A stretch of 64,000 nt of DNA, taken from assembly GCA_038211855.1 (NCBI GenBank), contig JBBQVE010000006.1:2146-66145 (forward strand), in the 5' to 3' direction. This DNA comes from Candidatus Saccharimonadales bacterium (GTDB lineage: Bacteria > Patescibacteriota > Saccharimonadia > Saccharimonadales > SZUA-47). The stretch's first letter is position 1; each line of letters starts with the position of its first letter. The position numbers were made by a program, and so were the translations under genes. The notes under the pieces were generated by a model that did no database searches, was not told the DNA's origin, and saw only the letters and a program-made list of their open reading frames with translations. Positions 19,713 to 54,999 of this stretch are shown here, one piece after another.

Positions 19713-19719
19713 GGTAAAT

Positions 19720-29178: not shown

Positions 29179-29248
29179 GGCGAGAATCCTTTGTTTAAAC
29201 TTAAGCGTATTGTACACCAAATTTAATAGGGGCTATACTCAGAGGACT

Positions 29249-30590: not shown

Positions 30591-30691
30591 ATATTCGAAT
30601 TATACCAATCAAAGATGCTTATGCGGACAGATGATTCTAAATATGTTTGGCTGAGAGTGGGATAATGAGTGCATAACCAAGGAGATTTATA

Positions 30692-31108: not shown

Positions 31109-31112
31109 TACT

Positions 31113-31655
31113 TTATCTCAAATACGTTGCAGCCAAAATCGTCAAATGGAAGACTGCAATATAGCTCGCCTGGAAATAGAGCATCTTTGGATGCCGGCGT
31201 TTGTATTTCGTTAAGAGGTAGACACCATACAACATATAGAGCACTACAACTGTTCCGAATATGCGAGCCGGTGTTGAAACGCTTTTTGAGAGCACAATCA
31301 ACAGTGTAATCGGCAAGAAACAATACGACATCGTAAAAGCTGCGTAGCGATGAATCACAATCTTCCTGCCTGTCGTTTCAGGCGTGACTGCCGCCACTAA
31401 CATACAGCCGCTACAGATCGTTACAAGCAGTTTAAAAAGCAAACCCATTTTGAAATGCGGCGCAAACCAGTCAATCATAAAGAGATAAAACAGCGGCAAA
31501 GTCACAAGGAATAGCAGGAGGTAATACATCTGAGCCGCCTTATTCTGCGCAGCGTGTTGGCTGAACGACATGCTCGTGTTCCCCGGCCAAGCCTTGATGA
31601 GAAAGATAAGCCCCAGCCATGTGAGTGAAATAGAAATGATACCGAGGTTCTTCAC
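31113..31655 (-). CDS. Polytopic membrane protein, hypothetical (last gene of polA operon)
   Basis: 180 aa with ~5-6 TM helices. The GTG start overlaps the Nudix stop by 1 nt. Confidence 0.65.
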   Translation of the reverse strand: MKNLGIISISLTWLGLIFLIKAWPGNTSMSFSQHAAQNKAAQMYYLLLFLVTLPLFYLFMIDWFAPHFKMGLLFKLLVTICSGCMLVAAVTPETTGRKIVIHRYAAFTMSYCFLPITLLIVLSKSVSTPARIFGTVVVLYMLYGVYLLTKYKRRHPKMLYFQASYIAVFHLTILAATYLR

Positions 31656-32062
31656 TAGTCAATAAGTCCCTGCTCTTTTAGTTTTGGCATGACTTCGTGT
31701 TCAAAGATCGAGCCAATCATAAGACCATCGTCGTTAACTGAAGTAATCCACTTTAAGGCTTCAATTTCGCTGCTTGCAACTGGTTCACCTGCATATTTAT
31801 CAACCATAAAAACATCCATTTTGAGTGTCTTACCTGGCTGGTCCATAGCTGCTGCCGTAAATGTACCGAAAGGCACGAAATCTTCTTCTGAACTGTCGAT
31901 GTCGAGCTCCTCTTTCAATTCGCGTTTCAAAGACTGTTTAGGAGTTTCATCGGCATAAATCTTCCCGCCCGGCGCGTAAAAAGAAGGTTTACCTTTTGAA
32001 CGACAAACTAAAAGTTTATTATCAAGGATAATTATTCCCGCGGCTTTATAGATATCAGTCAT
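31655..32062 (-). CDS. Nudix hydrolase
   Basis: Nudix box GGKIYADETPKQSLKRELKEELDI (Gx5Ex7REUxEExGU). The ATG overlaps the upstream stop (TAATG). Confidence 0.88.
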   Translation of the reverse strand: MTDIYKAAGIIILDNKLLVCRSKGKPSFYAPGGKIYADETPKQSLKRELKEELDIDSSEEDFVPFGTFTAAAMDQPGKTLKMDVFMVDKYAGEPVASSEIEALKWITSVNDDGLMIGSIFEHEVMPKLKEQGLID

Positions 32063-35000
32063 TACTGCTTTTCAATACTTCCGTTTGTTAGGCTTAACCG
32101 TACTGTATCACCAGTTTTGAGCAACTCTGTAGCATTATGAGTACCGACAATGCATGGTTTTTTGAGTTCACGCGCTACAATCGCGGCGTGGCATAAGATA
32201 CCACCCTGGTCGGTGATGATTGCTCTGGCCTGCACAATCAACGGGATATAATCAGGACTCGTCATCTTGCATACCAAGATCTCATCAGAACTTAGTTCGA
32301 TACCATGAGGCGAATCAACAATTCTTACTTTTCCAGTAACAGCTTCTTGTGGCGCCGAAGCAACACGTCCCTGTAATTGGCCAGCAATCGGCGAAGAAAT
32401 CGATAGTTTGAAATCTGCATAGAGTTTGGCCAAGGTGCGGCTATAATCAATAAACCAAGTACCAGTTTCTTTGCTATAGACTGTCTCGTAATAGCCTTTC
32501 ATATAATCGTGCGTAAACGTTGCATCAACTGCCGTTTTTAAAGTGGACTGTTTTTTGGCATCTTTCACCAGCACATAAGAAATCATCTCTTTGAGATATT
32601 TTAGTGCCGGTTTATTTGATGGCTCGATGTGCCAGTTCGTGAAATCAAATGTAAAGATTGATGGCATGTCGTTATCATAAAAACCTTGTGTCAGAACATT
32701 GTGTCCATCAGCAATTATTTCGCCAAAAACGCCGTAGTCATTAATGATGAAAATCGTCGACCATTCATTAACGTCCATATGCGGCACAAACTCGACTGTG
32801 TATTTTGTTGGATCAATCGTTTGCGTATCGTACCACAACATTACATCCTTGATTTTCTTGCCGCGGTTACGTAGGACCTCCAGGTGAATTCCTTTCTTTG
32901 GAATCAGTCGCAAGGCGCAAGCTTCTTCACCGTTCTCGGCAATGAACTTTTTTAATTCGTCGGTTCGACTGGTAAGTTCTGTGGCATCAAATGTGGTCGG
33001 CTTATCAAACGGGAATGGAATAATCTCGGCAATCAGCCCAAGACGTTCGCGTTTGTAGTTGTTTTCTACCCGCATCGCTTTCGTATCAGCATGGCCGACT
33101 TTCTCAAGCCATTCGGTGAATGGAATCTGCTTTTCGTAAAACTTCGAGAGCACATCGCCGGATTTCTGCTCTTTTTTGCTCTTGTTCACTAGTCCATTCA
33201 CCAGATCCAAAACGACTTTGTCGCCGGTTTTAAGGACTTTGGTGGCGTGTACCGTACCGACGATGCATGGTAAGTTGAATTCTCGTGCCACGATAGCTGC
33301 GTGACTCATCATACCGCCATGATCAGTTATTAGGGCGGCAGCTCTGCGCATAATTGGCACATAACTTGGACTTGTGCTCGGTACGACAACAATTTTGCCT
33401 TCTGGTATCTGCTCGATTGGGTCGTGTACAACTACGACTTCGCCGCTTAAAAAATGCAGGCCACCGCGCGAGCTCACGATTCCCTGCAATACACTTTCAG
33501 CGGCACGATAAGACACATACCAGTCCCATGCACGATCGACTTCGGCCTTCTTGAGGCTGATATTCTCACCTTTCAAGTAGGTCCAGCCATAGTATTCTTG
33601 CGGACTTTCATCTGTTAATTCATCGATTCGGCAGTTTTCGAGATGCAAGATTTCTTGGCCAGTTTTTTCGGCAATTGTTTGCACCATTTTCTGAATAACA
33701 CTGCGGCTTTGCATCATCCAGGCTTTGCGATCATCCATAAATTCGGCAATATTCCGTAGTAAATTGAGCTGTTTGATAATGGTAGGCTTAAGATTGAACA
33801 CTCTCGCTAAATGGGCACGATTTTCGGCTGAACCTACGATGACATCAGCCTTGCCACCCAAGTCTATAATGCGCTTCACATAATATTTTTCGAGACTCAC
33901 TTGCTTACCGACGCCTGCGTAGCTACTGAGAGACCACCAGTATTTTTTGGCCAACTTTTTGGGATCATTGAGATCGACTACATCTTCATCGATCTTGTTG
34001 ATGAATGTGGGACGATCAGGCTGACTGAAGCCACCTATTATTCGCCGCTGGTCATCTTTGGAATAGTTACTGAGCTGTTTGGTGATAGAGCTTTCCCCGC
34101 CGTACAGGGCGAGCTCGGCAATAAGTGTTGGTCGCCACGCAGCAGCGAGAAGATCTGATAGTGCCTTTGGTTCGTAGACTTTATCAAACTCGATTTTGGA
34201 TGCCGCACGTTTCCAGTCAGCAATGTCTTCTTGTAAGTCGCCGTGCTTTACATAGGCATCAAAGATTTCCTCGCTAAACTCGGCAAAAGCATCTGCTTTA
34301 TTGAGCCACAACGATTTATTTTCATGAAAAAGTAATAAGGTTTTAGGCGGATTTGGGTAGTCTTTACTTTCATACAAGTGCTTAAAGTTCACTTGTTCGG
34401 CTATCAAAAAATCACTCATGTAGAGTGGTCGGGCGCTTGCCGGGCCCCAATAAAAAAGTGTTTCCGGCTCACCAAGATAGTGGTGTCCTTCACCCGTTTG
34501 CTTGATGTTGAGCGCCGTAATCGGGCGAGATTGTGTAATCCATAAAATGCCAGATTTATCGATGGCCCACTCGATATCCTGCGGAACTCCGTCGTAAAAA
34601 GCTTCGATGCTCAAGCCGGCGCTTATGAGATCCTCAGTGTCGAATGGAGCTTGTTTCTTAGTGATCAACTTCTGGCTTTTACGGTCCCAGCTAATCTGCC
34701 CTGGCGTCACTTTGCCGCCTACTAACTGCTCACCAATACCCTTCACATACTCAACGACAATTTCGTTTTTACCACTCACCGGATTCTTCGTGAACAGAAC
34801 TCCTGCATATTCTGGATTAACCATTTCTTGTACGACGACGGCAACTTTAAAGTCTGTTCCCTTACCCACTTCGGCTGCATATGCCTCAGTACGCCTGTTT
34901 GAGGTCGCGTGGCATTCTTCAGTCTTTGTGATGACATCTTTTGGTGCCACATATAGGAAAGTTTCGAACTGTCCCGCCCATGATTTATCCCCAGCATCCT

Positions 35001-35211
35001 CAACTGTCGCAGAAGACCGCACTGCATAAAGCTTGCTGTCGTCTAACTCTAATTGCACATCTTTTAAGAGATGGCCGGAGGCATTGAATCCATCATGAGA
35101 AATAGCCCATCCAGCCGGCACCTTCAATCTATTTTGCAACAAAAAAGCGAGATTAGAAGCCTTTCCACCGAATTTCGTAAGATCATTTGCGTCCTCTAGA
35201 CGCACGATCAT
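32062..35211 (-). CDS. PEP-utilizing/PPDK_N-family phosphotransferase with two phosphohistidine swivel domains
   Basis: N-terminal ATP-grasp PPDK_N (FGGKASNLAFL...RSSATVEDAGDKSWAGQFETFL...DIEWAIDKSGILWITQSRPIT). Swivel 1 is ITDHGGMMSHAAIVAREFNLPCIVG (His637, 33301-33303). Swivel 2 is ITDQGGILCHAAIVARELKKPCIVG (His1008, 32188-32190). I recognise no PEP/pyruvate TIM-barrel motifs. Confidence 0.85.
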   Translation of the reverse strand: MIVRLEDANDLTKFGGKASNLAFLLQNRLKVPAGWAISHDGFNASGHLLKDVQLELDDSKLYAVRSSATVEDAGDKSWAGQFETFLYVAPKDVITKTEECHATSNRRTEAYAAEVGKGTDFKVAVVVQEMVNPEYAGVLFTKNPVSGKNEIVVEYVKGIGEQLVGGKVTPGQISWDRKSQKLITKKQAPFDTEDLISAGLSIEAFYDGVPQDIEWAIDKSGILWITQSRPITALNIKQTGEGHHYLGEPETLFYWGPASARPLYMSDFLIAEQVNFKHLYESKDYPNPPKTLLLFHENKSLWLNKADAFAEFSEEIFDAYVKHGDLQEDIADWKRAASKIEFDKVYEPKALSDLLAAAWRPTLIAELALYGGESSITKQLSNYSKDDQRRIIGGFSQPDRPTFINKIDEDVVDLNDPKKLAKKYWWSLSSYAGVGKQVSLEKYYVKRIIDLGGKADVIVGSAENRAHLARVFNLKPTIIKQLNLLRNIAEFMDDRKAWMMQSRSVIQKMVQTIAEKTGQEILHLENCRIDELTDESPQEYYGWTYLKGENISLKKAEVDRAWDWYVSYRAAESVLQGIVSSRGGLHFLSGEVVVVHDPIEQIPEGKIVVVPSTSPSYVPIMRRAAALITDHGGMMSHAAIVAREFNLPCIVGTVHATKVLKTGDKVVLDLVNGLVNKSKKEQKSGDVLSKFYEKQIPFTEWLEKVGHADTKAMRVENNYKRERLGLIAEIIPFPFDKPTTFDATELTSRTDELKKFIAENGEEACALRLIPKKGIHLEVLRNRGKKIKDVMLWYDTQTIDPTKYTVEFVPHMDVNEWSTIFIINDYGVFGEIIADGHNVLTQGFYDNDMPSIFTFDFTNWHIEPSNKPALKYLKEMISYVLVKDAKKQSTLKTAVDATFTHDYMKGYYETVYSKETGTWFIDYSRTLAKLYADFKLSISSPIAGQLQGRVASAPQEAVTGKVRIVDSPHGIELSSDEILVCKMTSPDYIPLIVQARAIITDQGGILCHAAIVARELKKPCIVGTHNATELLKTGDTVRLSLTNGSIEKQ

Positions 35212-37865
35212 AGTTCGCCCCAGTTTTTGCCGGTGCTCACGTCAACACGGAGGTTCACGCCCAGTTTTGGATAGATGTTCTCCATGGTTTCTTTCAGGAT
35301 TTTACCGACTTCATCGGCATCTCTTTCGAGACATTCAACGAGGATACTGTCGTGGATTTGTAGGAGTTGCTGAGCGCCTTTTGGCAATTTTTCTTCTACC
35401 GCCGACATCGCAAGTTTGGTAAGATCGGCGGCTGTGCCTTGAATTGGCATATTGATGGCAGCTCGGTAGGCACCTTCTCTGACTGGGAAAGCTGGTGATT
35501 TTACATCTGGCGTTGGGCGACGGCGACCAAGCAGTGTTTCGACGTAGCCACGGTTTAAAGCTTGCTCACGGAAGGTCGTAATCATGCCTTTGAGCTTTGG
35601 ACGGACAGCGAAGTATTTTTCGATGAATTCTTTGGCTTCGGCCAGGCTAATACCCGTCCCATTAGCGAGCCCAAAAGTTCCCTGCCCGTACAAAATACCG
35701 AAGTTAACGGCCTTGGCTGCGTAACGCATCTCTTTGGTGACATCCTTTGGATCGATTCCCTGAATTAATGCTGCTGTTTCGGTATGAATATCACGGTCGT
35801 CGTTAAAGGCCTTAATCATCAGCTCGTCACCACTCATGGCGGCCGCGATACGCAGCTCAAACTGGCTGTAATCGGCACTGACGAATGCATTTCCCTTCTC
35901 GGTAATGAAACCACGGCGAATGCCTTTGCCAAGTTCAGTGCGCACCGGAATATTCTGGAGATTCGGGTCAATTGAACTCAGCCGGCCAGTGGCAGCACTA
36001 GTCAAATTGAAGGTGGTATGAATGCGGTCGTGCTCGTCAGTCAATAGCGGCAACGTGTCGACATAAGTTGATTTGAGCTTGGTGAATTCACGATAATTTT
36101 GTATACATTCGATGATTAGATGCTTGTCTTTGATCTTTTCGAGCACATCATTGGCGGTACTGTAGTTGCCGTTCTTCCCCTTCTTGGTGAAGGTAGTTGG
36201 CAGGGCTAATTTCTCGAACAGAATCTCACCGAGTTGGCCAGGGCTGGAAATATTAAATTCTTGATTCGCAAAACCATAAATCGTTTGTTCGATATCACTG
36301 ATGCGGCCCTCAAGGTCGAGGGCAAAGGCGGCAAAGAATGGCGGATCGATCTTGATACCGGCACGCTCCATACGGGCTAAGACGGGAATTACCGGCCAAT
36401 CCACTGTGGTCGCAAGGTTAATAAGTGAGGTGACTTCACTCATCTGCATGCTCTGCATATTGGCGAGTGCCAGAATTACCCCAACGATTTCATCGGCCTT
36501 TTCGAGCAGCTGATCGTCATCCAAATCTTCCAGGTTACCTTCGTAGCCGAGATCCCGAGCAGCAAGGGCAGTCAGTGTACGGTCACGGCCCAGTGAATCA
36601 ATAATAAAGTCAGCTATCAGCGTGTCGTGAGCGACTTTTGGCAGTTTCATGCCAAGTTCTAGTAACACCTTAAAACTGTTTTTTATATCGTGACCCATGG
36701 CTGATTCTAGACTACCAAGTCCCTTTTCGGGGATGGCAACTTTGCGTAGGTCAATTGCGTAGGCATGCTCTGAATCACCAAGAATTAACACCTTTGGCTC
36801 AGTGCCATTTTTTCCTGCTGAGCGGGCATGCACCACTAATTCATTGCTCGTATGTATCTGCTTGAAGTCACCCGGCTTTGTAATTGTTACTAACTTCGGC
36901 ATATGAATCTCTTGTAGCTCCTTAAACGTTCCCTTTGCTGGCGAATCAATATCGAAGTTTTTTGGCACCGGTACATCCGCAGCGCGCATAACTGCTGGCA
37001 GGGTTTTAAGCAAAGATCGGAACTCGAGGCGCTTCAGAATCTCAGCCAGCTCAGCCGTGTCGAGTTTATTTACATCCATTTCTTCCAGGTCGAGCGGAAC
37101 TGGCGCATCATCAAATAGCCGTGCAATCTCTTTGCTCATATAGGCAGAGTCCTTGCCTGCCGCGAGCTTACGAGCCACAGAATCTTTTATAAGTGCCAGA
37201 TTTTCATATACATTGTCGAGGGTTTTATATTCCTGCAGTAGTGTAATCGCCGTTTTTTCGCCGATACCAGGCACGCCCGGAATATTATCGGAACCGTCGC
37301 CTTTGAGGGATTTTAGATCGAGGAATTGATCCGTTTTGAGGCCATATTTTTCTTCGAACATCTCAGGTGTGTATTTATCAATATTCGTGAAGCCTTTTTT
37401 GAGCGCGTAGACATGCGTCAACGGACCTAGACACTGCAAAGCATCCAAGTCGCTGGTAATAAGCATCGTTTCAATTCCCACCGCTGAGGCTTTTTTGGCC
37501 AGCGTACAAAGGATGTCATCGGCCTCGAAATCATCATATTCATAAAGCGGCCAGTTAAATGCGCGCAATAGTTCATGCAAAATTGGAATCTGGGCATAAA
37601 AGTCAGGCGGCGGTCTTTTGCGGCCAGCTTTGTACTGCGGATACACTGCCAAGCGCCTTCGCACATTGGTTTTTGGCTTGTCCCAAGCAACACAAACATA
37701 ATCTGGCTTTAGCTTCTTAATCAGTTCGAGGGCCATGGCAGTGAAGCCGTAAATCCCCCCAGTAGGCGTACCATCTTTGGTGCTGAGACCTCCCATGGCG
37801 TAATAGCCACGATAAAACACACTCAGACCATCGATAATTGCCAGTTTTTTGGGTGCGTCAGCCAT
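35208..37865 (-). CDS. polA: DNA polymerase I
   Basis: 5'-nuclease N-domain, motif A VSADYSQFELRI, motif B RYAAKAVNFGILYG, motif C QIHDSILVE. The TGA stop overlaps the next ATG (ATGA). Confidence 0.95.
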   Translation of the reverse strand: MADAPKKLAIIDGLSVFYRGYYAMGGLSTKDGTPTGGIYGFTAMALELIKKLKPDYVCVAWDKPKTNVRRRLAVYPQYKAGRKRPPPDFYAQIPILHELLRAFNWPLYEYDDFEADDILCTLAKKASAVGIETMLITSDLDALQCLGPLTHVYALKKGFTNIDKYTPEMFEEKYGLKTDQFLDLKSLKGDGSDNIPGVPGIGEKTAITLLQEYKTLDNVYENLALIKDSVARKLAAGKDSAYMSKEIARLFDDAPVPLDLEEMDVNKLDTAELAEILKRLEFRSLLKTLPAVMRAADVPVPKNFDIDSPAKGTFKELQEIHMPKLVTITKPGDFKQIHTSNELVVHARSAGKNGTEPKVLILGDSEHAYAIDLRKVAIPEKGLGSLESAMGHDIKNSFKVLLELGMKLPKVAHDTLIADFIIDSLGRDRTLTALAARDLGYEGNLEDLDDDQLLEKADEIVGVILALANMQSMQMSEVTSLINLATTVDWPVIPVLARMERAGIKIDPPFFAAFALDLEGRISDIEQTIYGFANQEFNISSPGQLGEILFEKLALPTTFTKKGKNGNYSTANDVLEKIKDKHLIIECIQNYREFTKLKSTYVDTLPLLTDEHDRIHTTFNLTSAATGRLSSIDPNLQNIPVRTELGKGIRRGFITEKGNAFVSADYSQFELRIAAAMSGDELMIKAFNDDRDIHTETAALIQGIDPKDVTKEMRYAAKAVNFGILYGQGTFGLANGTGISLAEAKEFIEKYFAVRPKLKGMITTFREQALNRGYVETLLGRRRPTPDVKSPAFPVREGAYRAAINMPIQGTAADLTKLAMSAVEEKLPKGAQQLLQIHDSILVECLERDADEVGKILKETMENIYPKLGVNLRVDVSTGKNWGEL

Positions 37866-38510: not shown

Positions 38511-41291
38511 ATGGATGGGACAAAAACAGATATTGTTGAGGCGTACCGCTTAAGTGTGCCTGATGCGTTGCACGAATACCATGCGGTGACGACGGGACTT
38601 GAAGCCAGCGAGTCAGCCAGCCGTCAACAGAAATTCGGCTGGAATAAGCTTGTCCCTGTAAAGAAAGATAGCCTACCGCTGCGTTTTGCTCGCCAATTTA
38701 AAGACCTGATGATTATCCTGCTGATTCTCAGTAGCGTGTTTTCTTTTGTAATCGGCGATGCTCGCACAGCCGTCGTCCTGGCGGCCATCGTCCTTATTAA
38801 CGCGACTATCGGCTTCACGCAGGAATACCGCGCCGAACGCGTCATGGAGTCGCTCGAAAAGCTAGTGGTGGCACTCGCCAAAGTAAAGCGTGACGGCAAA
38901 CTCAGCGAAATCCCCAGCGTCGAACTGGTGCCAGGCGACATTATCTATGTAGAAGAGGGCGATAGCGCTCCAGCTGACGTACGTGTCATCGAAGAAACGG
39001 AACTTTCTACAAACGATTTTGCCCTCACCGGTGAATCCAGTCCAAGCCGCAAATTCACTCACGCTATCGAAGGTACCGTGCCGCTCGCCAACCGCCACAA
39101 TCTCGTCTTTATGGGGACAACCGTCGCGACCGGTGATGCGACTTGCCTCGTGATTGCCACTGGTATGCAGACCGAACTTGGCCGCATTGCTTCCTTAAGT
39201 GGTGGTCAAAAAACCGAAACTAGTCCGTTGCAAAAAGAAATGACCAGCCTGGCCACAACTATCACCAAAGGCACGCTTATATTAGGGGCGATTCTAGCAG
39301 CCATTGCTTGGAAAGCCGACTTTGGCCTCAAAGATTCGTTTATCTTTGCCATCGGCATCGCCAGCGCTATGATTCCTCAGGGACTGCCAGCCGAAGTGAA
39401 CACTGCTCTAGCGAGTGCCGCCGGACGACTCGCCAAAGACCGTGCTTTAGTAAAGAAATTATCAGCCGTGGAAACACTTGGTGCTACCTCTGTTATTTTA
39501 ACAGATAAAACCGGTACTTTAACGAAGAATGAAATGACCGTCCAGCAGCTACAGATCGGCACTAATACCTACAATATAAGCGGCACGGGCTACGAGTCGA
39601 ACGGCGAAATCCTCCTTAAAAACAGCCCCTTGAAACCCGCCTCGCTCGAAGCCCTAGAGCAGTTCTTTGCTTGCGGCGCACTGGCCAGCAATGCTCATGT
39701 CCACCCGCCAGATGATACCCACGCTACCTGGTATTGTCTTGGCGATCCAACGGAAGGCGCGCTGATTACACTCGCACGCAAGGGTGGTATAGACGTTGAA
39801 AAGCTTGAAAAAAATCATAAAGAATTACGCGAATTCCCTTTTGACTCTGCTCGCAAACGCATGACGAGTGTGCGCTTGTGGAATGGAACCTTGACTGCCT
39901 TTGCCAAAGGCGCGCCAGAAAGTGTAGTAGCGGCCTGCACGCATCTCTGGGATGGCGAAACCGTCCGCAAACTAACCATACACGACATACAGGATATACG
40001 CGCGCGTAATGATCTCTGGGCCAGCGGTGCTATGCGCAACCTCGCCTTTGCGTACCGCGAACTACCCAAAGGTACCAACATAGAAGATTTAGCCATGAAA
40101 GAAGTCGAAGCCAAAATGGTCTTCATGGGACTTGTCAGCATGATTGATCCGCCGCGTGATGAAGTGCCAGAAGCTATGGTAATTGCCCGGGCCGCCCATA
40201 TCCCCGTCAGCATTATCACAGGCGACAATGCCCTCACAGCACGCGCGATAGCGGTACGCGCTGGCCTTGCAGAGCATCCTGATGACTTAAAACTCATCGC
40301 CGGCGAAGATTTACCAGCAATGAGCGACCACGACGTACTAGCGCTCGTTGTCCGTGGTCAAACGATATTTAGCAGGGTTGCACCAGAGGATAAATTACGC
40401 ATCGTCGAGATCGTTAAAAAAAGTGGTAGAGTTGTCGCAGTCACGGGCGATGGAATTAACGATGCACCTGCCCTGAAACGTGCTGATATCGGTGTTGCTA
40501 TGGGCAAAACTGGTACTGATGTTGCGAAGCAGTCGGCCGAAATCGTCTTACTTGATGACAGCTTCCATACCTTAGTAAACGCCGTGCAAGAAGGTCGTGT
40601 TATTTTTCAGAACATCCATAAAGCCGCGTTGAGTGCCATAACTAGTAATGGTGGGGAGTTGTTCGTGGTGCTTGTATCCCTTGCTATGCAGACCGCCTTC
40701 AAGGTGCCGATTGCGATCGGTGCCGTGCAGATTCTGGCAATCGATCTGATTGCCGAGTTGTTCCCCATTGCTGCCCTTGGTTGGGATCCGGCTGAGGGCG
40801 ATCTGATGCACGAACATCCACGTAATCTAAAAGAGCATATCTTGAACCGAGCAAATATCTGGGACCTTGCCTGGAGTGGCGCACTGATGGGCGGTTTTGG
40901 GTACCTCAACTACATGTTGTTCTTCGCACGTCACGGACTCACTGCCCAAGGCTTCAGCAAAACAACTGTGGCCTATGCCACTGCCACCACCCTTACCTAT
41001 GTAACGATTTGTCTGTGTCAGTTTGGCAGCATTATGATGCGCCGCGTCAAGCCAGGTCACAGACTCCTGACAAACTACTTATGGTCGAACAAGAAGCTGT
41101 TTGTGGCCTTTGGTATCTCAATTACGTTGATGTTGTCGCTAATCTATGTACCGTTCTTGCAGCCGTACTTTGGCACGGCAGGTTTGCACGCCGCAGACTG
41201 GCTCTACGCGTTTCTGGCGGCCGCTTTATTTGTGACCATTCGCCAGGGCATTTTTAGGATGCGTTCGCAGCGCGCAGTCGCTAACGACTAG
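38511..41291 (+). CDS. P-type cation-transporting ATPase (P2-like, Ca2+/Mg2+ type)
   Basis: LTGES actuator motif, phosphorylation site DKTGTLT, hinge TGDGINDAPALKRADIG, ~10 TM helices. The ion specificity cannot be fixed from sequence by eye. Confidence 0.92.
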   Translation: MDGTKTDIVEAYRLSVPDALHEYHAVTTGLEASESASRQQKFGWNKLVPVKKDSLPLRFARQFKDLMIILLILSSVFSFVIGDARTAVVLAAIVLINATIGFTQEYRAERVMESLEKLVVALAKVKRDGKLSEIPSVELVPGDIIYVEEGDSAPADVRVIEETELSTNDFALTGESSPSRKFTHAIEGTVPLANRHNLVFMGTTVATGDATCLVIATGMQTELGRIASLSGGQKTETSPLQKEMTSLATTITKGTLILGAILAAIAWKADFGLKDSFIFAIGIASAMIPQGLPAEVNTALASAAGRLAKDRALVKKLSAVETLGATSVILTDKTGTLTKNEMTVQQLQIGTNTYNISGTGYESNGEILLKNSPLKPASLEALEQFFACGALASNAHVHPPDDTHATWYCLGDPTEGALITLARKGGIDVEKLEKNHKELREFPFDSARKRMTSVRLWNGTLTAFAKGAPESVVAACTHLWDGETVRKLTIHDIQDIRARNDLWASGAMRNLAFAYRELPKGTNIEDLAMKEVEAKMVFMGLVSMIDPPRDEVPEAMVIARAAHIPVSIITGDNALTARAIAVRAGLAEHPDDLKLIAGEDLPAMSDHDVLALVVRGQTIFSRVAPEDKLRIVEIVKKSGRVVAVTGDGINDAPALKRADIGVAMGKTGTDVAKQSAEIVLLDDSFHTLVNAVQEGRVIFQNIHKAALSAITSNGGELFVVLVSLAMQTAFKVPIAIGAVQILAIDLIAELFPIAALGWDPAEGDLMHEHPRNLKEHILNRANIWDLAWSGALMGGFGYLNYMLFFARHGLTAQGFSKTTVAYATATTLTYVTICLCQFGSIMMRRVKPGHRLLTNYLWSNKKLFVAFGISITLMLSLIYVPFLQPYFGTAGLHAADWLYAFLAAALFVTIRQGIFRMRSQRAVAND

Positions 41292-42255
41292 TAAGTGCCC
41301 GATGTAATTCGACTACAGAGTTGATGCCTGAGTTGATTTCCTGCAAGAGTTCATGAGGCTTACGGACAAGATTCGCAAAACCGGCCCCAAAACCAATGAT
41401 TTCTGTTTCGGCGCCATTTGGAATACCGACATGTCGCATAAAGTCAGCCTTCTGGAAAAACGTATACTGGGCATTTGTGACGCTAAGAGCCGATTTGCCA
41501 ATTCCCGCGATGCCTCTTTTTTCTAATTCACTGCTCCGATTAAGTGTACTTACAAACCGATAAGCATCTGCTGTATTCGCACGTGCTGTACCCTCAATAG
41601 CCGGCGCCCAGATAGAAACAACATCTAATCCACTGTCTGTTTTGTAAATGCGTAAGCGACCATGATCCCGTGAGCTTGAGTCCGTTGGACCAAACCGTGT
41701 CTCTTCAATTTCATGGACATCATGAGTCGCTCGTAAAGCACCATCCATGAGGTCATACTCGTAGTTTGCGTTCGGTGCGTAGTCTGCTGTTTTTTCCTTT
41801 TCAGCGTCCTGCAAAACCCTTCCGGAGCCAAGAAGGAACATCGTACCAACGGTTCCGACATGTGCCGTGTAAAATTTTAATCGAGACAGCGGTGCTTTGT
41901 TGCCGGCACCTAATATCCAGGCAGAATCATATCCCTCCTTTGAGGGCAAAGTATCGTCAACCAAGTTAAAACCAGAAATGTTCCTGGATGCCGCAAAGAC
42001 AAGGCGAGCCATCATAACATTTTCGTTAATTTCGGTAGGCTCGACCGACTGCCACCTTTCAACAAAGTTATCTTTCGTGCTTTTACGAAAGTCAAAGGTA
42101 GCATTCGTAAACTCTTGCAGGTTTAAGAGCTTATCGCCATCAGTACCGTCTGTTTGAGGCTCAAAACCAAAGGTTTGTGCCACTAGCAGTAAATGAGGGT
42201 CCGTAACGACTCCATTTACAAATTCTCGTCCACTTTCTCTGGTATCAATCATCAT
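41281..42255 (-). CDS. Hypothetical protein (weak DUF218/YdcF-like resemblance)
   Basis: 324 aa, no TM. The segments WILGAGNKAPLSRL...LLGSGR...YEYDLM faintly recall the YdcF/SanA fold. The 3' end overlaps the convergent ATPase gene by 11 nt. Confidence 0.55.
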   Translation of the reverse strand: MMIDTRESGREFVNGVVTDPHLLLVAQTFGFEPQTDGTDGDKLLNLQEFTNATFDFRKSTKDNFVERWQSVEPTEINENVMMARLVFAASRNISGFNLVDDTLPSKEGYDSAWILGAGNKAPLSRLKFYTAHVGTVGTMFLLGSGRVLQDAEKEKTADYAPNANYEYDLMDGALRATHDVHEIEETRFGPTDSSSRDHGRLRIYKTDSGLDVVSIWAPAIEGTARANTADAYRFVSTLNRSSELEKRGIAGIGKSALSVTNAQYTFFQKADFMRHVGIPNGAETEIIGFGAGFANLVRKPHELLQEINSGINSVVELHRALTSR

Positions 42256-42308: not shown

Positions 42309-43160
42309 TTAACGCGAGATACTATGATGGGCGACGAGTTTGACCACCCGTTGCCGAGACGGCATCACCTTCTTTTCAAAGACAACTAACGGATTATACT
42401 TAAGCTGTTGAGCAGTCCACGTCTGACTATCGATGGCTGTTTGCAGTGGTACTCTCAAGCGCCGTGGCAGGTGCGCAAAACGGTCATTAGCTTCATTTTG
42501 CCATTGTGCGTAGCGTAGCAACTCGGCGTGTATAAAATCTGCGAACATACCGGGTTTTTTGCGCGCTTCTGCCTCTGTTAAATTCTTCAAACCGTACTTC
42601 TTGACGTCATTCGCCGGAAAGTAACAGCGACCGCGCATATTGTCTTCGGCGATGTCGCGCAGAAAGGTAATATATTGCATCGCTCTGGCCTGCAAACGGA
42701 CGGCTTTCATCGATTCTTCGGGCAGGCCAATAATACGGGCAGCCATCAGGCCGATGACTTCTGCCGAACCATAGACGTACTCAATGCTGTCCTTAAGTGT
42801 GCGGTACTGGTGCTTCTGGAGGTCCCAGCGCATGCTGCGCAAGTAAGCGTCTATCCACGCGGGATCAAAGCTGTGGCGGTGCGTAAGATAAGCAATATTG
42901 GCGAGGACATGCTCGCTCACCGAGCCATCAATTGGTGCCGGTACCTGTTTTTTAAGGAGGTCGACTTTGATGTGCTGCCAACGATGCTCGATGTGTTCGA
43001 ACTGTTCAATAGTGGCCGGATCTGCATCGACAAAACCATCGACCGTTCGAATAAAACTATACAATTTAAAGATGTCGTCGCGCGCTGGCTTGGGAATAAA
43101 ACGATTACTCCAATAGTAAGGAGTGTGGCCAGTTTTTAGGATTTTTCTTTCAACGCTCAT
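42309..43160 (-). CDS. Squalene/phytoene synthase-family enzyme
   Basis: Both Asp-rich motifs are present (RTVDGFVDAD and FLRDIAEDNMRGRCYFP). 283 aa. Confidence 0.85.
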   Translation of the reverse strand: MSVERKILKTGHTPYYWSNRFIPKPARDDIFKLYSFIRTVDGFVDADPATIEQFEHIEHRWQHIKVDLLKKQVPAPIDGSVSEHVLANIAYLTHRHSFDPAWIDAYLRSMRWDLQKHQYRTLKDSIEYVYGSAEVIGLMAARIIGLPEESMKAVRLQARAMQYITFLRDIAEDNMRGRCYFPANDVKKYGLKNLTEAEARKKPGMFADFIHAELLRYAQWQNEANDRFAHLPRRLRVPLQTAIDSQTWTAQQLKYNPLVVFEKKVMPSRQRVVKLVAHHSISR

Positions 43161-43213
43161 GGTTATAATTATGCCAAAAAAAATCTCGTCATACAGCAGT
43201 AATTAATACAGAC

Positions 43214-44302
43214 TTACGTACTACGGTCGATAAGAGAGTCAACAAGGGCCTTTAAAAAGTTGGTCCCAGAATCATTCCAGTTGTGGGCAGTTCTATCTAA
43301 TGAGACTTTGGCCTCTCTGACGAGCCTTTCGGCCTGATTTTTGGCTTCCTCAAGGGCGCCAGTGTCCACAAAAATCTCTTTACAGCTGGTAAATTCAGTA
43401 TGCGTGAGGCGCTCATTGCCCATCATCTGAATAAGAAAGTTTTTGTCGGCACTGTCGGCTTTGCGCAGCGCTACTAATGACAAGAGCGTCTGCTTGCCTT
43501 CGCGAATATCGTCCATCGGGCTCTTGCCTGCCTCTAGCTCACTGCCAAATATACCAATAATGTCGTCAGTAATCTGGAAGGCTCGGCCGGCATGCATGCA
43601 GTAGTCAGTAATCGCTTTGAGCGTTTCATCATCGGCGCCGGCCAAAGCCATACCGAACTGGAGCGGATTCAAAAAAGAGTAATGGGCGGTTTTCCATTCG
43701 AGTACATGATCGACATCTTGCTCACTCACGTTGTCGAGCACTTCGTTGAAGAGGTCGTTAATCTGGCCATGGCCGGTGACAACCAAAGCATCGTTGAGCA
43801 ACTTGAGAGCCTTCACTTTTTGGACATCACCAACCGCTAATTCGGTAACGAGCGACTGGGCATAGTGATTGCCAATAAGCGCGGCGTTGATGGCCACCGC
43901 CTCACCAAAATGAAGGCTTTCCCCGCTTAAGCCAGTCTTATGGTGATAGTTCGATATGAGCATGTGAGCCGATGGTCCACCGCGGCGCATGGCAGATTTG
44001 TCCATGATATCGTCGAGAATCAGGATATAGGCGTGGACTATTTCGATGGCACAGGCGGCCTGCAGAATCATAGCGTGGTCAGCACCACCACGCATTTCGT
44101 AGCCGATTATCGTCAACGCGCCACGGATACGCTTGCCGCCGCGACCTAAGATCTCTGTAAATGCGTTGACAGCGATGACGGAATAGGGGGTGAAATTTTG
44201 AGCAGTCGATTTTTTGAGGTGAGCTGCGTGAGCATCGAGGGCGCCATCAACTTCTTTTTTTAGAGCCGTCAGGCGCGCTGCAAAAGCCAGTTTTGTCTCC
44301 AT
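43214..44302 (-). CDS. Polyprenyl (geranylgeranyl-type) diphosphate synthase
   Basis: FARM ILILDDIMDKSAMRRG and SARM FQITDDIIGIFG. 362 aa. Chain length is not determinable by eye. Confidence 0.9.
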   Translation of the reverse strand: METKLAFAARLTALKKEVDGALDAHAAHLKKSTAQNFTPYSVIAVNAFTEILGRGGKRIRGALTIIGYEMRGGADHAMILQAACAIEIVHAYILILDDIMDKSAMRRGGPSAHMLISNYHHKTGLSGESLHFGEAVAINAALIGNHYAQSLVTELAVGDVQKVKALKLLNDALVVTGHGQINDLFNEVLDNVSEQDVDHVLEWKTAHYSFLNPLQFGMALAGADDETLKAITDYCMHAGRAFQITDDIIGIFGSELEAGKSPMDDIREGKQTLLSLVALRKADSADKNFLIQMMGNERLTHTEFTSCKEIFVDTGALEEAKNQAERLVREAKVSLDRTAHNWNDSGTNFLKALVDSLIDRST

Positions 44303-44888: not shown

Positions 44889-46004
44889 TTACTTGATGTA
44901 GTCGAGGAGCTTGCGACTGTCGCGGTGCTTACGCAGCTTAGCCAGGGCTTTGGCTTCGATTTGGCGAATGCGCTCGCGGGTTACGCTGAATTCCTGGCCG
45001 ACTTCTTCTAGCGTATGGCTCTTGCCATCTTCGAGCCCGAAGCGCAATTTTAAAATTTTTTGTTCGCGGTCAGTGAGGCCGGCGAGCAACTGTTTTACAT
45101 GTTCTTTGAGGAGCTGGTTGGTGGCGGATTCCTCGGGAGAAATGGTGTCTTCATCTTCGATGAAGTCACCTAAGACGGAATCCTCTTCGTCGTCGCGAAC
45201 GCTCGCGTCTAAGCTCGAGATGTCCTGCTTGATCTTCATAATGTGTTCAACTTTGTCGACATCGATTTCCATTGCCTTGGCGATTTCGTCGTTGGTCGGT
45301 TCGCGATTGAGCTCCTGCGTTAAGCGGCGCTGGGTTCGCAACAACTTGTTAATCGTCTCCACCATGTGCACCGGAATACGGATCGTACGTGCCTGGTCAG
45401 CAATCGCTCGCGTAATCGCCTGACGAATCCACCAGGTGGCGTAGGTAGAGAACTTAAAGCCCTTATCTGGGTCGAACTTTTCGACCGCGCGTAGCAGACC
45501 AGTGTTGCCTTCTTGTATCAGGTCCAAGAGGTCCAAACCACGTCCGACGTAGCGCTTGGCGATCGAGACAACGAGACGCATGTTGGCTTCTGCCATCTGG
45601 TCTTTGGCTTCTTTATCACCAGCCACGACGCGCTGAGCAAGTTCAAGCTCATCCTTCGCATTTAACAACGGTATTTTACCAATTTCGCGAAGGTATAAAC
45701 GGACCGAGTCATCGGCAATATCATCAAGATAGGTGCCTTCATCGAGGACGATTTCTTCACCATCTTCCACGGACCACTCGTCGCTCAAATCTTCTGGTTT
45801 CGGCTCGGCAATACCAGTGACTTCAATTTTATGGGCTGCTAATTCGACGTAAAAAGCATCGAGTGCGTCGATGTTTTCGGGTGTATCCGCAATCACCTCA
45901 AAAATCTCGCGCTGTTCGAGCTTACCGTCTTTTTTTGATTTCGCGATCAGGGCACGCTTACCGGGCTCAAACGGATCAGCCGCTGGTTGTGGTACATCTG
46001 CCAT
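44889..46004 (-). CDS. rpoD: RNA polymerase sigma factor RpoD (primary sigma70)
   Basis: Region 2 [18 protein letters not shown] / [15 protein letters not shown] and region 4.2 [24 protein letters not shown]. Lies downstream of dnaG. Confidence 0.95.
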
Positions 46005-46015: not shown

Positions 46016-47764
46016 TTACTGTTGTGTTAGTTGATAAGCCTTTGCAAGCTCGTCGAGTTCTTTTGCCTGTTGTAATAACTTTGGCGTGGTTTTTTCATCG
46101 GCGACGTCAATTTCGCGGATGATAAGGTGTTTTTTGTATTTGACGTACTCTGCAACCAGTCGTGAGGCGAGCGTTTCGGTTTGATACCGGAGCTCATCAA
46201 CCTCTGTATTTTGGTAGAGTTCTTCGGATAGAAGTACTAACATTTTAACATAATCCTGCACTTTTTGCAGCCCCTCACTACTGTTGCCGTCGTATTCAGG
46301 ATGTTTCAGGAGGAATTGATGCATGATAAGCGCGTCAGGCTGAATAAAAACTTCTGCTGGCAGGCCGACCAAAATCGGGCGTAATGCGGGGTGCCTGAGG
46401 GCAATCGACAACAGATGTTGTTCCAAAATAATCCGATCTTTATCATGGGGCTGCTCTGTGTCATCAGTCTTGCGTTTTTTGAGTCTTGTTTGGGCCTCTT
46501 CACTGCCCTGCATCTTGGTGCGCAAGCTAGCCGCACTGACTTCGATTTTTTTGGCTAGCAGTGTCACATAGTGGTCCTGCTCAACGCTGTCTTTCAAGCG
46601 CTTCACCAGTTTTAGCACAACGTCTGTGTAAGTACGTTTGCCAACAGCGCTGGTGATGTCTAACTGCGCCTCGTAGCGCGCCATCAGCCAATCGATGACA
46701 TACTGTGGATTTTGCACAGCCTTAAGCCACAATTCCATATCTTTTTTGATAAGTTCGTCGGGGTCTTTGCCTTCGGTGATCGTAATCATTTGCAGCGTGA
46801 CATCAACTTGGTTGGCGAGGTCGATGGCCCGCTCGGCGGCTTTTTGGCCGGCGCTATCTTGATCGAAACAGAGGCGGATATCGCCGGTAAAGCGTTTGAG
46901 GGCTTTGAGATGCTGTACGGTCATGGCCGTTCCGGCAGTCGCAACAACGTTTTTGACACCGACTTGATGGCTGGCGATCACATCGAGATTACCTTCGACC
47001 ACCACCACGAAACCTTCTTTGCGGATGGCTTCTTTGGCAAGATGGAGCCCATAGGCTTGCCGGCCTTTGTCATACAGCAGCGTGGCCGGCGTATTGATGT
47101 ATTTGGGAGCGTTCGGGTCAGCATCCAACTGTCGAGCTGTAAAGCCAACCACCATGCCCTGCGCATCGCTGAGTGGCACCATGAGGCGGCCACGGAACAT
47201 ATCTCCCAAGCCGTTACGACGCTCAGTGACGAGGCCGGCACGCTTCATTTCGTCAGCCGTGAAGCCCTTCTCGACTAAATATTTGAATAATTCTTGGCCG
47301 CTGGACGGACTATATCCCAAGCGAAATTCGATAATCGTTTCTTTGCTGAACGCACGATTTTTGCGCACGTAATTAAGCGCATCGGTATTTTGCGTAAGTT
47401 GTCTTTGATAAAAATGGGCTGCCAGTTCAAGCGCTTTGTAGAGCCGTTCCTTAAGTTTGCTGTTGTCATTGCTGTTGGTGCGGTACTGGCCCAGATCAAC
47501 GCCGGCCTTGCGAGCTAAAAGCTCCAGGGCTCCCTTAAAATCGAGGCCCTCCATCTCCATGACAAAACTGAAGACATTACCTCCCTTACCACTGCTGAAG
47601 TCGTGCCAGATCTGTTTTTCGGGGCTCACCATCAAGCTTGGTGACTTCTCGTTGCTAAACGGACTAAGCCCTTTGAAGTTGCGGCCGGAGCGCTTCAGCT
47701 GCACATATTCAGAGACGATATCTTCAATCGCTAGCCGCTCTCGTATTTCACTCGCCGCATCCAT
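46016..47764 (-). CDS. dnaG: DNA primase DnaG (zinc-ribbon ligands all substituted)
   Basis: ZBD-like N-terminus, TOPRIM ([23 protein letters not shown]) and a helical C-domain. I place the start at ATG 47764 ([11 protein letters not shown]...), which matches DnaG N-termini. The track start at 47842 is an upstream extension. Confidence 0.92.
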
Positions 47765-47831
47765 ACTTATAGGGTACAGGCTTTGGCCTGCACGGTACAG
47801 CTTAAGGACTATTTCTGGTATCATAAGCAGT

Positions 47832-48437
47832 ATGCAACCCAATGGACAAGCTCCCGCCCCCGCACCACAGCAAAACCCCTACGACTATCTATTGAATCCA
47901 CCGACCGCACCACGCAAGCAACGGCCGCTGTTTAGTGGCGGAAACAAAGTCGTGAAGGTCGTATTTGTAGCTGTGGTTTTAGTCGTCGTGCTCATCGCCT
48001 ACTCGGTGTTTTCAAACCTCACGAAGACCAACTACGACGCCGTCGTACGCTTAGCCGAAAGACAGCAAGAGATTGTTCGGGTTTCTAATCTGGGCCTTGC
48101 GAGCGCCCAAGATCCGGCCACGCGTGTGTACGTGTCGACAATCGCAAGCACTACCCAGAGTGAGCAATATGCCACCGTTGCTTTCCTGAGCAAAAAACAG
48201 ATCAAAGTCTCCCCAAGCGTATTGGCCCTAAAGCAGGATAGTTCCATCGACACTTCTCTCAAGAGTGCCCAGCAGAATAACACCTATGATAAGGTACTGA
48301 CCGACACATTGAACGATCTCCTACTTAGCTACCAAAAAGCTCAAAAAGAAGTCACCGACGTGGGCAAGAGCAAGAGCGAAACCGCTCTGTTTGCAACCTT
48401 GTTTTTGAATGCAAAAGTTTTGGACGGTATTAAGTAG
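47832..48437 (+). CDS. Membrane-anchored hypothetical protein
   Basis: 201 aa from ATG 47832. Pro/Gln-rich N-terminus, a single TM (VVKVVFVAVVLVVVLIAYSVF) and an extracytoplasmic helical domain. The upstream part of track ORF 47457.. is antisense to dnaG. Confidence 0.6.
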   Translation: MQPNGQAPAPAPQQNPYDYLLNPPTAPRKQRPLFSGGNKVVKVVFVAVVLVVVLIAYSVFSNLTKTNYDAVVRLAERQQEIVRVSNLGLASAQDPATRVYVSTIASTTQSEQYATVAFLSKKQIKVSPSVLALKQDSSIDTSLKSAQQNNTYDKVLTDTLNDLLLSYQKAQKEVTDVGKSKSETALFATLFLNAKVLDGIK

Positions 48438-50576: not shown

Positions 50577-50966
50577 TTATTTAGATTCTTGGAAGCCAAG
50601 ACTGGCCGAGTTGATGCAGAAATGTTGGCCGTTTGGCGAGGAATCATCTGGGAATAAGTGCCCTAGATGACCACCGCAATTGCTGCAAGTAACCTCCGTG
50701 CGATGCATGCCGAGAGTTGTGTCATCGTTCAGGGTTATAGCATCGTTCGACGAGGCTTCTGAGAAGCTCGGCCAGCCGATCAGGCCAGGCATGGTCGACT
50801 CGTATTTGCTGTCACTTTTGTACAAGTCCTTTCCGCAATTGGCGCACGTATACATACCCGTTTTGTCGTTGTGTAGCAGTGCGCCCGTTCCCGGTGCTTC
50901 AGTGCCCGCTTCAAATAGAACGTGTTTTTGTTCGTCGCTCAGATCCGGATTAATTTGTTGTGTCAT
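50577..50966 (-). CDS. msrB: Peptide-methionine (R)-S-oxide reductase
   Basis: Zinc CxxC pairs (CANCGKDL, CSNCGGHLGHLF) and the GWPSF motif. Confidence 0.93.
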   Translation of the reverse strand: MTQQINPDLSDEQKHVLFEAGTEAPGTGALLHNDKTGMYTCANCGKDLYKSDSKYESTMPGLIGWPSFSEASSNDAITLNDDTTLGMHRTEVTCSNCGGHLGHLFPDDSSPNGQHFCINSASLGFQESK

Positions 50967-53475: not shown

Positions 53476-54999
53476 CTAGTCAGCAACAGTTTGTTGTTGT
53501 TCGTCGACCTTGGTCTTCTCATTCAAAAAGTCAGCCGCCCGGTAGCCTATAATTCTTTTGCGATCATCGTTGAGGTGATCAAGTTCACCGACGATAGTTT
53601 TCATATGGGGATTCTTGGCAAAAATAGCACGATTCTTCTCGATAAAGCCCCAATAGAGCCCGTCCCACACGTCTGCCCAGACATCTTTTTCGTAATAGCT
53701 CATCTGCATAATATAGTCGCTGCTGCTGGCACTTGGTTTCGGTGTCATGGTGCCGCCATCGGCCGCCTGGCTCAGCGTATACACACAGGGCACCAGCGCC
53801 CAGTCGTAAGCATCAACCATCATTTCCATACACCAGTTGTAGACATCATTCGGGTCGATTTCTGACACAAGCATGATATTTCCCAGCACCATCAATCGTT
53901 CGTTGTTGGAGACATAGCCGCGCTTCAACACCTTCTTGATAACGTCATCAACCGGCGGAATTCCCGTTGTTGCTTCGTACCAATCCTGACTCAACTTTCG
54001 TTTGTGACCGAAAACATTCGCGCTGCGCATCGCCGCTTGGTGGGTCTGATACATCCCACGCATGTATTCGCGCCAGCCGAGCACTTGGCGCACAAAACTC
54101 TCAAGTGAAGGCAATGAAACTGGCTTTTTTGCATGCGCTGCAAGTGCGGCATCAAGAACAGCTTCAGGATTGAGCAGGCCAATGTTAAGGGCGGGCGAGA
54201 TGCCACTGTGGTAGGCCCATGGCGCTTGGCCATCGATGGCGTCGATGAAGGGACCAAAATGATCAAGGCGATCTTTCAGGAACGAAGCCAACCAGGTCTC
54301 TGCTTCTTCATGGTTGGTGGCCCAACAGAAATCAGCGTCGTCACCGGGGTTATTCGGGAAGTTTTTGCGCACATAATCGCGCGCTTCGTCAACGTATTTA
54401 TTACTGCCGAACACCTCGAACGTTGGTACGGCTTCACCTTCAGGCAGGCGCTTTTTGCTCTCTTCGTCGAAACTCCATGTGCCACCGACCGGCTTGTAAT
54501 CGTCGCCAATCAGAATGTTCCAGCGCTCGCGTTGCCATTGATAGAACGCACCAAAGGCAATTTTTTTGCTCGACCCAAAATACTGGGCGACTTCGCCGCG
54601 CTTGAGATAAAAGTTCGGGCTGTCGAGGATTTGTAGCTGCGGCACTTCGGGCACCGATCCATTTGCCGCCATCAAGCGGCGCTGCAAAACATCATCTACG
54701 ACATCGAAGACGGTGACCGAATCAAAGCCCTTTACCTTCTGCATGATGTCGCCACTGTCACCTAGATCAGCGAACGTGACATATTCAACATCGTAGCCGG
54801 CCGGCCACAAAACTTCCTCGATGTAGCGGCGCATACTGGCACGGTGCAGGATCAGTTTTTGACGATGAAAAAAGACTGGAAACTTGAGATCTGTCCCAAA
54901 ATATAAGGGGTCCTCAATCACAAACACGTGCGTGATGCCTTCGGGAAGGAAGTCTTTTTTGAAGAGCTGATGCGGATATACCAGGTGGGCAGATTTCAT
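53476..54999 (-). CDS. Cryptochrome/photolyase-family protein (COG3046, FeS-BCP/CryPro-related) lacking the Fe-S cysteines
   Basis: 507 aa. The N-terminal MKSAHLVYPHQLF...VFVIEDPLYF and the C-terminal GWREYMRG, ERLMVLGN, DAYDWALVP patterns are typical of deoxyribodipyrimidine photolyase-related proteins. Confidence 0.8.
   Translation of the reverse strand: MKSAHLVYPHQLFKKDFLPEGITHVFVIEDPLYFGTDLKFPVFFHRQKLILHRASMRRYIEEVLWPAGYDVEYVTFADLGDSGDIMQKVKGFDSVTVFDVVDDVLQRRLMAANGSVPEVPQLQILDSPNFYLKRGEVAQYFGSSKKIAFGAFYQWQRERWNILIGDDYKPVGGTWSFDEESKKRLPEGEAVPTFEVFGSNKYVDEARDYVRKNFPNNPGDDADFCWATNHEEAETWLASFLKDRLDHFGPFIDAIDGQAPWAYHSGISPALNIGLLNPEAVLDAALAAHAKKPVSLPSLESFVRQVLGWREYMRGMYQTHQAAMRSANVFGHKRKLSQDWYEATTGIPPVDDVIKKVLKRGYVSNNERLMVLGNIMLVSEIDPNDVYNWCMEMMVDAYDWALVPCVYTLSQAADGGTMTPKPSASSSDYIMQMSYYEKDVWADVWDGLYWGFIEKNRAIFAKNPHMKTIVGELDHLNDDRKRIIGYRAADFLNEKTKVDEQQQTVAD

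Follow-up and report, generated by a model that had tools for sequence, protein, structure and literature searches.

The dnaG gene and its product

The analyzed window, a 64,000-nucleotide stretch of contig JBBQVE010000006.1 from a Candidatus Saccharimonadales bacterium (assembly GCA_038211855.1), carries dnaG, the gene of a DnaG-type bacterial primase (Table 1). The N-terminal domain of this protein is a CHC2 zinc ribbon homolog in which all four zinc ligands are substituted, and we found the ligands to be lost in every Saccharibacteria genome sampled.

The dnaG product matches the NCBIfam model TIGR01391 over its full length (393.6 bits, cutoff 283.6; profile positions 8–413 of 414), and its Pfam domains Zn_ribbon_DnaG, DNAG_N, Toprim_2, and DnaB_bind follow each other in the canonical order. 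The first of them, PF01807 (CHC2 zinc finger/Zn_ribbon_DnaG), scores 96.3 bits (cutoff 24.9, E = 1e-27). In the RNA-polymerase domain, the toprim residues E257, D261, D301, D303, D334, and D336 and the KYxN residues K221, Y222, and N224 are invariant in an alignment of 105 zinc-less sequences (alignment A3). We take these residues to be the counterparts of E. coli E265, D269, D309, D311, D345, and D347 and of K229, Y230, and N232, respectively. The motif blocks of the catalytic and nucleoside triphosphate-binding residues are also recognizable in the alignment with the A. aeolicus primase. Residues 357–410 match PF10410 (DnaB_bind; 37 bits, cutoff 20.6), and helicase binding is predicted only.

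The start of the gene is apparently over-extended in the deposited annotation. The mechanical open reading frame (ORF), which begins with TTG and spans 608 amino acids, is 26 codons longer than the gene described here, and the 602-amino-acid entry P0001 is 20 codons longer (window positions 47765–47842, minus strand). Homologs of dnaG start at MDA, with a few carrying 2–4 extra residues. A longer N-terminus, whether from the upstream TTG or as in the 602-amino-acid entry, was also considered as a source of additional cysteines or histidines and was rejected, since the extension MGCILLMIPEIV is not conserved.

All four zinc ligands of the N-terminal domain are substituted

A HMMER alignment places the 90–95 N-terminal residues of DnaG on the zinc-binding domain of the G. 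stearothermophilus primase (Protein Data Bank (PDB) entry 1d0q) without gaps, at 53% identity and E = 8e-29. The alignment with the A. aeolicus structure 2au3 puts the ligands in identical columns. At these positions, the Cys/His/Cys/Cys set is replaced by S34, S37, D55, and S58, and the CHC2 ligands that characterize PF01807 are thus absent. The codons can be read directly from the DNA as AGT for S34 (47665–47663), AGC for S37, GAC for D55 (47602–47600), and AGT for S58 (47593–47591).

A first-pass annotation, which was made from the letters of the window alone, had described the domain as a CHC2 homolog with every ligand substituted between 47591 and 47665 and with the scaffold residues around the ligands conserved. 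The profile and structure-based matches (PF01807, 1d0q, 2au3), the codon reading, and the alignments bear out this description. It had further stated that residues 25–70 contain no alternative Cys or His that could complete a metal site, which needs a correction. This segment does contain one histidine, H54; however, the same residue is found in zinc-containing homologs (FHCFGC), where presumably it is not a ligand, and alone it cannot complete a site. The entire protein has a single cysteine, C299, which lies in the Toprim domain.

The substitutions are lineage-wide and under purifying selection

The distribution of the altered ligand set was analyzed in the 80 species-representative Saccharibacteria genomes that were retrieved. 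Among these, 78 have the pattern S-x-D-S and the remaining two S-x-D-T. The S-x-D-S pattern also recurs, at identities down to 55%, in each of the 116 closest database proteins whose sequence covers the N-terminus, and about 45 further clusters (representatives at 50% identity) show S-x-D-S/A/T at identities down to roughly 37%. Whether ligand loss is clade-wide had been put forward as a check in the first-pass annotation; with 80/80 species-representative genomes and about 350 proteins, it is.

The same distribution bears on the trivial explanation, in which a sequencing or assembly error, a frameshift, or a wrong frame at the four codons created the pattern. We found nothing in favor of it. 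The identical pattern recurs in hundreds of independent assemblies (NCBI, JGI, ENA, Logan), which rules out sequencing error, and the continuous reading frame scores as a full-length dnaG. The chance that the pattern is such an artifact is therefore practically negligible.

To characterize the altered domain, 325 distinct zinc-less domains, chosen by Ser34 and Asp55, were compared with 124 distinct C-H-C types, chosen by ligands 1–3. Positions 34, 37, and 55 define the two sets, and the independent differences are those at positions 57 and 58. Position 58 is Ser in 96% of the zinc-less domains and Cys in 93% of the zinc forms. Position 57, which is not a ligand position, switches alongside the ligands, from Gly (99% of the zinc forms) to Ser (100% of the zinc-less domains). 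Across relatives, the signature thus changes from C-P-F-H…C-F-G-C to S-P-F-x…D-F-S-S, and chance does not account for it. Further systematic differences between the two types of domain are E14, R25, R28, and K60. In the nearest zinc-containing relatives, IWHCFGC stands in place of IWHDFSS, with H54 and the beta-sheet residues alike in both.

Within 119 close homologs, S34, H54, D55, S57, and S58 are invariant in every protein. Within the core, variability peaks at the former histidine position 37 (S, G, T, A, or N; entropy 1.87 bits), which is free to vary and, over all sequences, takes S, T, N, G, A, K, or Q. The mean frequency of the major residue in these homologs is 0.88–0.91 in the zinc-binding domain, 0.75–0.79 in the catalytic domains, and 0.53 in the C-terminal domain. 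The zinc-binding domain is thus the best-conserved part of the protein, unlike what a decaying domain would show. In the 80 genomes, D55 is encoded by GAT (39) or GAC (41), and S58 by codons from both disjoint serine families (AGY in 27, TCN in 51). The S34 codon is AGY in 79/80 genomes, a single step from the Cys codon TGY. The amino acids at these positions were held while synonymous codons drifted, which shows strong purifying selection.

These data also speak to the possibility that the domain is degenerate and Twinkle-like, with primase function lost and priming taken over by an archaeo-eukaryotic-type primase or by RNA polymerase. There is a precedent for this, as metazoan TWINKLE without the zinc cysteines does not prime (PMC5737085). 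However, every catalytic residue in the RNA-polymerase domain is invariant, unlike in Twinkle, no other part of DnaG is as conserved as the zinc-binding domain, and a Pfam scan of the roughly 60 ORFs in the window found no other primase domain. We therefore consider a degenerate domain very unlikely.

Relatives that retain ligands suggest a route of loss

The nearest DnaG proteins that retain zinc ligands form a small C-H-C-C clade (P0131, P0293–P0301, P0305, and P0133). Outside their own clade, these proteins are closest to the zinc-less Saccharibacteria primases, at 46–50% identity. Other relatives have kept the third ligand alone. This lone cysteine occurs as S-T-C-S in P0134, P0467, and P0270, as S-T-C-T in P0225, and as S-K-C-T in P0238 and P0274. 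The latter two are labeled Candidatus Gracilibacteria, a hint from sequence that ligand loss reaches beyond Saccharibacteria. The S-T-C-S protein P0134 already has the G57S exchange.

The genomic loci of two of these relatives were compared with the window (Table 1). Both the C-H-C-C protein P0295 and the S-T-C-S protein P0134 are encoded in the gene order of the window, which is RNase_T, YjbR, a small divergent ORF, dnaG, and rpoD; the pairing of dnaG with a sigma-70 gene is thus found at loci L081 and L082 as well. In addition, the P0134 locus has a small kinase-like gene of the AAA_18 type after rpoD, and the P0295 locus has MsrB upstream and polA downstream. Because they occupy the same syntenic locus, the C-H-C-C, S-T-C-S, and window proteins are orthologs. 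A spare paralog that exists beside a normal zinc-binding DnaG is accordingly unsupported at the locus level. The P0295 locus (L081) also contains two extra sigma-70 paralogs, one of which is fused to a WhiB domain.

Taken together, the data would fit a stepwise change of C-H-C-C through S-T-C-S, in which G57S is already present, to S-x-D-S, and S-T-C-S and the other lone-Cys forms may be living intermediates of zinc-site loss. Neighbor-joining trees of the RNA-polymerase domain (200 bootstraps) left all deep nodes unsupported and establish neither a single origin nor a direction of change. A profile search that started from four lone-Cys intermediates and was aimed at Gracilibacteria-like relatives mostly returned Saccharibacteria again, with one new S-T-C-S protein (P0467).

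Table 1. Positions of dnaG, its domains and knuckles, and further genes discussed in the text. Coordinates refer to the window unless a locus of a relative is named.
Feature	Position	Strand	Basis or remark
dnaG, DnaG-type bacterial primase, 582 amino acids	46016–47764	minus	ATG at 47764; continuous reading frame
N-terminal "zinc-binding" domain, residues 1–92, CHC2 zinc ribbon homolog without the four ligands	47489–47764	minus	PF01807, 1d0q alignment, AlphaFold2
Knuckle 1, S34-P35-F36-S37 in place of C-P-F-H	47654–47665	minus	Codons, alignment
Knuckle 2, H54-D55-F56-S57-S58 in place of H-C-F-G-C	47591–47605	minus	Codons, alignment
RNA-polymerase domain (DNAG_N and Toprim), residues about 111–345	46730–47434	minus	Pfam, conserved catalytic and nucleoside triphosphate-binding residues
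C-terminal region, residues 346–582, including the DnaB-helicase-binding domain	46019–46729	minus	Pfam, AlphaFold2
rpoD (sigma-70), directly downstream of dnaG; conserved dnaG–rpoD arrangement	44889–46004	minus	ORF translation
MsrB (SelR), both CxxC pairs of the structural zinc site kept	50577–50966	minus	ORF translation, motif
Fpg/MutM, C-terminal zinc finger C-P-R-H…C-P-I-C kept	22938–23816	minus	Motif
dnaG of P0134 (S-T-C-S)	L082 8001–9743; L083 5923–7665		Identical on contigs of two independent samples
dnaG of P0295 (C-H-C-C)	L081 8001–9746		On a 649,518-bp JGI contig

The zinc-less domain is predicted to adopt the ribbon fold

The structure of full-length DnaG was predicted with AlphaFold2 from 105 diverse sequences, all of them zinc-less. 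The mean predicted local distance difference test score (pLDDT) of this model is 92.9, with values of 81–95 over the N-terminal domain and of 92–95 for residues 11–70, which include both knuckles. The N-terminal domain consists of five predicted strands (residues 23–26, 29–33, 42–47, 52–55, and 60–62) followed by a helical bundle, and it superimposes on zinc-bound 1d0q with a target-normalized template modeling (TM) score of 0.87 at 2.2 Å. The predicted catalytic core matches solved DnaG cores with TM scores of 0.8–0.88, and the C-terminal region is modeled as helical with pLDDT >90 except for a linker at residues 429–436.

This model shows only that the zinc-less sequence family is compatible with the canonical five-strand ribbon fold. 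The first-pass annotation had offered two consequences of zinc loss, a structurally compensated fold or an altered initiation specificity. The frozen Ser/Asp/Ser/Ser positions, the conservation of the domain, which is the highest in the protein, and the canonical ribbon predicted with pLDDT >90 favor the former.

A polar network may replace the structural zinc

From sequence conservation, the structure model, and analogy with other proteins, we consider it likely, with moderate confidence, that the protein is an active replicative DnaG primase in which the structural zinc is replaced by a network of polar side chains. The Zn(Cys3His) center would be substituted by a fixed polar set, formed by Ser34 of the first knuckle and Asp55, Ser57, and Ser58 of the second. 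In this arrangement, the carboxylate of Asp55 may accept hydrogen bonds from the serine hydroxyls and from backbone amides, and the resulting network would link the two knuckles in the way that the metal links them elsewhere among primases. With no further need for it, the position once held by histidine would be free to drift. The template-reading surface, made up of the beta-sheet face and His54 ahead of the second knuckle, would be preserved, and the N-terminal domain would still recognize initiation sites on single-stranded DNA and pass them to the intact Toprim RNA-polymerase domain. That no metal is bound, that the hydrogen bonds have this geometry, and that priming activity is retained are inferences. 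A zinc-free, probably metal-free version of a domain generally regarded as an obligate zinc finger is thus probably used for replication priming across a large bacterial lineage. With slightly less confidence, we also suggest that the whole Saccharibacteria/TM7 lineage, and possibly Gracilibacteria or other groups of the candidate phyla radiation (CPR), replicates with a metal-free DnaG that reached the Ser/Asp/Ser/Ser signature via the still-extant lone-Cys intermediate S-T-C-S.

Several points weigh against a polar network that sustains priming. The zinc motif of T7 primase is reported to be required for template recognition (Mendelman 1994, cited in PMC6163395), and function without the metal is therefore not a given. 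AlphaFold2 models no ions, and 1d0q and 2au3 were part of its training data; a confident fold is therefore no proof of metal-free stability or of a contact between S34, D55, and S58. When AlphaFold2 was run on the domain alone, with 25 near-identical sequences, the mean pLDDT was a mediocre 68.9 and the value for knuckle 1 stayed under 50. Even so, 1d0q was the best PDB match (TM score 0.68–0.70), and the full-length run, with its 105 sequences, has taken the place of this shallow one. Finally, the Pfam scan that found no other primase domain covered the window only, and a second primase may be encoded elsewhere in the genome.

The exchange of ligands could also reflect a metal swap, in which a hard cation (Mg2+, Ca2+, Mn2+, or Na+) sits on the Asp55 carboxylate, the hydroxyls of Ser34, Ser57, and Ser58, and backbone carbonyls. 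Soft sulfur and nitrogen ligands have given way specifically to oxygen-bearing side chains that then became invariant, and Asp is a common metal ligand. On the other hand, such a site would have a single carboxylate, and serine hydroxyls are weak and rare ligands. Moreover, the fourth position (37) is unconstrained and admits even Gly and Ala, and the S-x-D-A lineages, with Ala at position 58, lose one more putative ligand. A metal swap thus seems improbable.

We give a similarly low probability to a functional shift, in which the metal-free fold is kept and the primase is retuned in its initiation trinucleotide, primer length, or DnaB coupling. Such a shift would be compatible with a polar network, but it would be adaptive for priming itself and not for metal or redox economy. 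It is the position of the knuckles that raises this possibility, since the residues flanked by them reportedly govern template specificity. In T7 (His33) and C. difficile (Lys70), template recognition is reported to depend on the residue just ahead of knuckle 2 (PMC5737085), and Ile/Cys56–57 in S. aureus represents another case of template-specificity residues (PMC8928506). In the window protein, the position equivalent to T7 His33 and C. difficile Lys70 is occupied by H54. The systematic differences from zinc forms at E14, R25, R28, and K60 would also fit a retuned primase. However, neither H54 nor the beta-sheet residues differ from those of the nearest zinc relatives, and nothing directly indicates a new specificity.

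If a polar network does replace zinc, no earlier DnaG zinc-binding domain would be known to lack metal in nature, and the structural role of zinc could be told apart here from the DNA-sensing role proposed for it in primer initiation. Should the zinc-free DnaG prime normally, zinc would act purely as a structural staple, replaceable by a hydrogen-bond network; should its specificity or primer length differ, the metal center would contribute to template reading. The C-H-C-C, S-T-C-S, and S-x-D-S forms at one orthologous locus offer a series for studying the loss of a structural metal site, and the compact signature S-P-F-x…D-F-S-S could serve as a lineage marker in metagenomes. The finding would also have a bearing on antibacterial strategies that are aimed at the primase zinc-binding domain or at zinc ejection.

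Other zinc sites and genes of the window

Two other proteins encoded in the window, MsrB and Fpg, keep their zinc sites (Table 1), and a genome-wide abandonment of zinc fingers was therefore rejected. The usual Fpg finger has four cysteines, and the finger found here falls short of E ≤ 1e-4 with the Pfam zinc-finger model. With both sites intact, the loss of zinc appears specific to DnaG, and structural zinc is still used. The ORFs of the window are cysteine-poor (0.73% Cys), and in such ultrasmall, host-dependent bacteria with few cysteines, the loss in DnaG may reflect selection for economy of zinc or for resistance against the oxidation of thiols.

Adjacent genes for a polyprenyl synthetase and a squalene/phytoene synthase lie just downstream of the dnaG–rpoD–kinase block (42309–44302, minus strand), an isoprenoid-condensing capacity that was unexpected for an epibiont with a reduced genome. 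A trehalose-6-phosphate synthase (Glyco_transf_20) is fused to a trehalose-phosphatase in a protein of 723 amino acids (20770–22941, plus strand). Directly upstream of polA (35208–37865), a protein of 1049 amino acids (32062–35211, minus strand) combines, in an unusual architecture, two PEP-utilising mobile domains with two segments that match the nucleotide-binding domain PPDK_N. A photolyase-related protein (DPRP and FAD_binding_7) is encoded at 53476–54999 (minus strand). A pair of a PIN-domain toxin and a MazE/AbrB-type antitoxin (3981–4603, minus strand) is located between the S6–SSB genes and ftsK. Several sizeable ORFs of 180–554 amino acids (all minus strand) have no Pfam match, at E ≤ 1e-4 in 18453–19724, 28249–31655, and 41281–42255 and at E ≤ 1e-5 in 16206–17870; these Pfam-less ORFs include four or five consecutive ones at 28.2–31.7 kb.

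Comparison with known systems

The window protein shares with canonical DnaG (1D0Q, 2AU3) the domain order, from the zinc-binding domain through the RNA-polymerase/Toprim domain to the DnaB-binding C-terminus, as well as the pairing of dnaG with rpoD. The scaffold elements PF-xEK-PS, SPEKQI-H-F, and GGN/D are common to both. Unlike canonical DnaG, the Saccharibacteria protein has none of the four zinc ligands, carries the extra Gly-to-Ser exchange at position 57, and contains a single cysteine overall. In bacterial primases, the three Cys and one His are described as highly conserved (PMC6163395, PMC8928506), and what exactly zinc contributes to the recognition of sites and the initiation of primers is regarded as unresolved (PMC6163395).

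Metazoan TWINKLE, a mitochondrial helicase that resembles T7 gp4 and whose primase region is vestigial, has likewise lost the zinc-coordinating residues (PMC5737085), and human Twinkle is among the fold-search matches of the DnaG model. However, TWINKLE has also lost the catalytic residues and does not prime, whereas the catalytic residues of the Saccharibacteria DnaG are invariant and its zinc-binding domain is the most constrained part of the protein. In a full-text literature search, metazoan Twinkle was the only DnaG/T7-type primase homolog found described without zinc cysteines; the search found no earlier report of a DnaG free of zinc ligands, its coverage being incomplete and a mention elsewhere possible.

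Zinc-free versions are also known from other essential zinc ribbons that bind nucleic acids. Makarova et al. are said to have described, in 2001, C+ and C− forms of zinc-ribbon ribosomal proteins such as L31, L33, L36, and S14, of which the zinc-free versions are functional. Those are usually pairs of paralogs that are switched by zinc availability (Zur regulon), whereas DnaG is a single orthologous gene that was converted lineage-wide.

The closest parallel to the proposed network is found in adenylate kinase, whose lids occur either in a Zn(Cys4) form or in a form with an extended hydrogen-bond network, the enzyme being active either way (PMC11526920). Conserved polar residues are present in the Saccharibacteria DnaG, where S34, D55, S57, and S58 are invariant, and contacts among them would make the site comparable to the hydrogen-bonded lid. 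The residues of the E. coli adenylate kinase, His126/Ser129/Asp146/Thr149, are strikingly near to S/x/D/S. Adenylate kinase belongs to another family and fold, and its network was seen in crystals, whereas that of DnaG is suggested by sequence. That polar networks can take the place of structural zinc sites is a known evolutionary theme; the ligand exchange in DnaG is real and lineage-wide.

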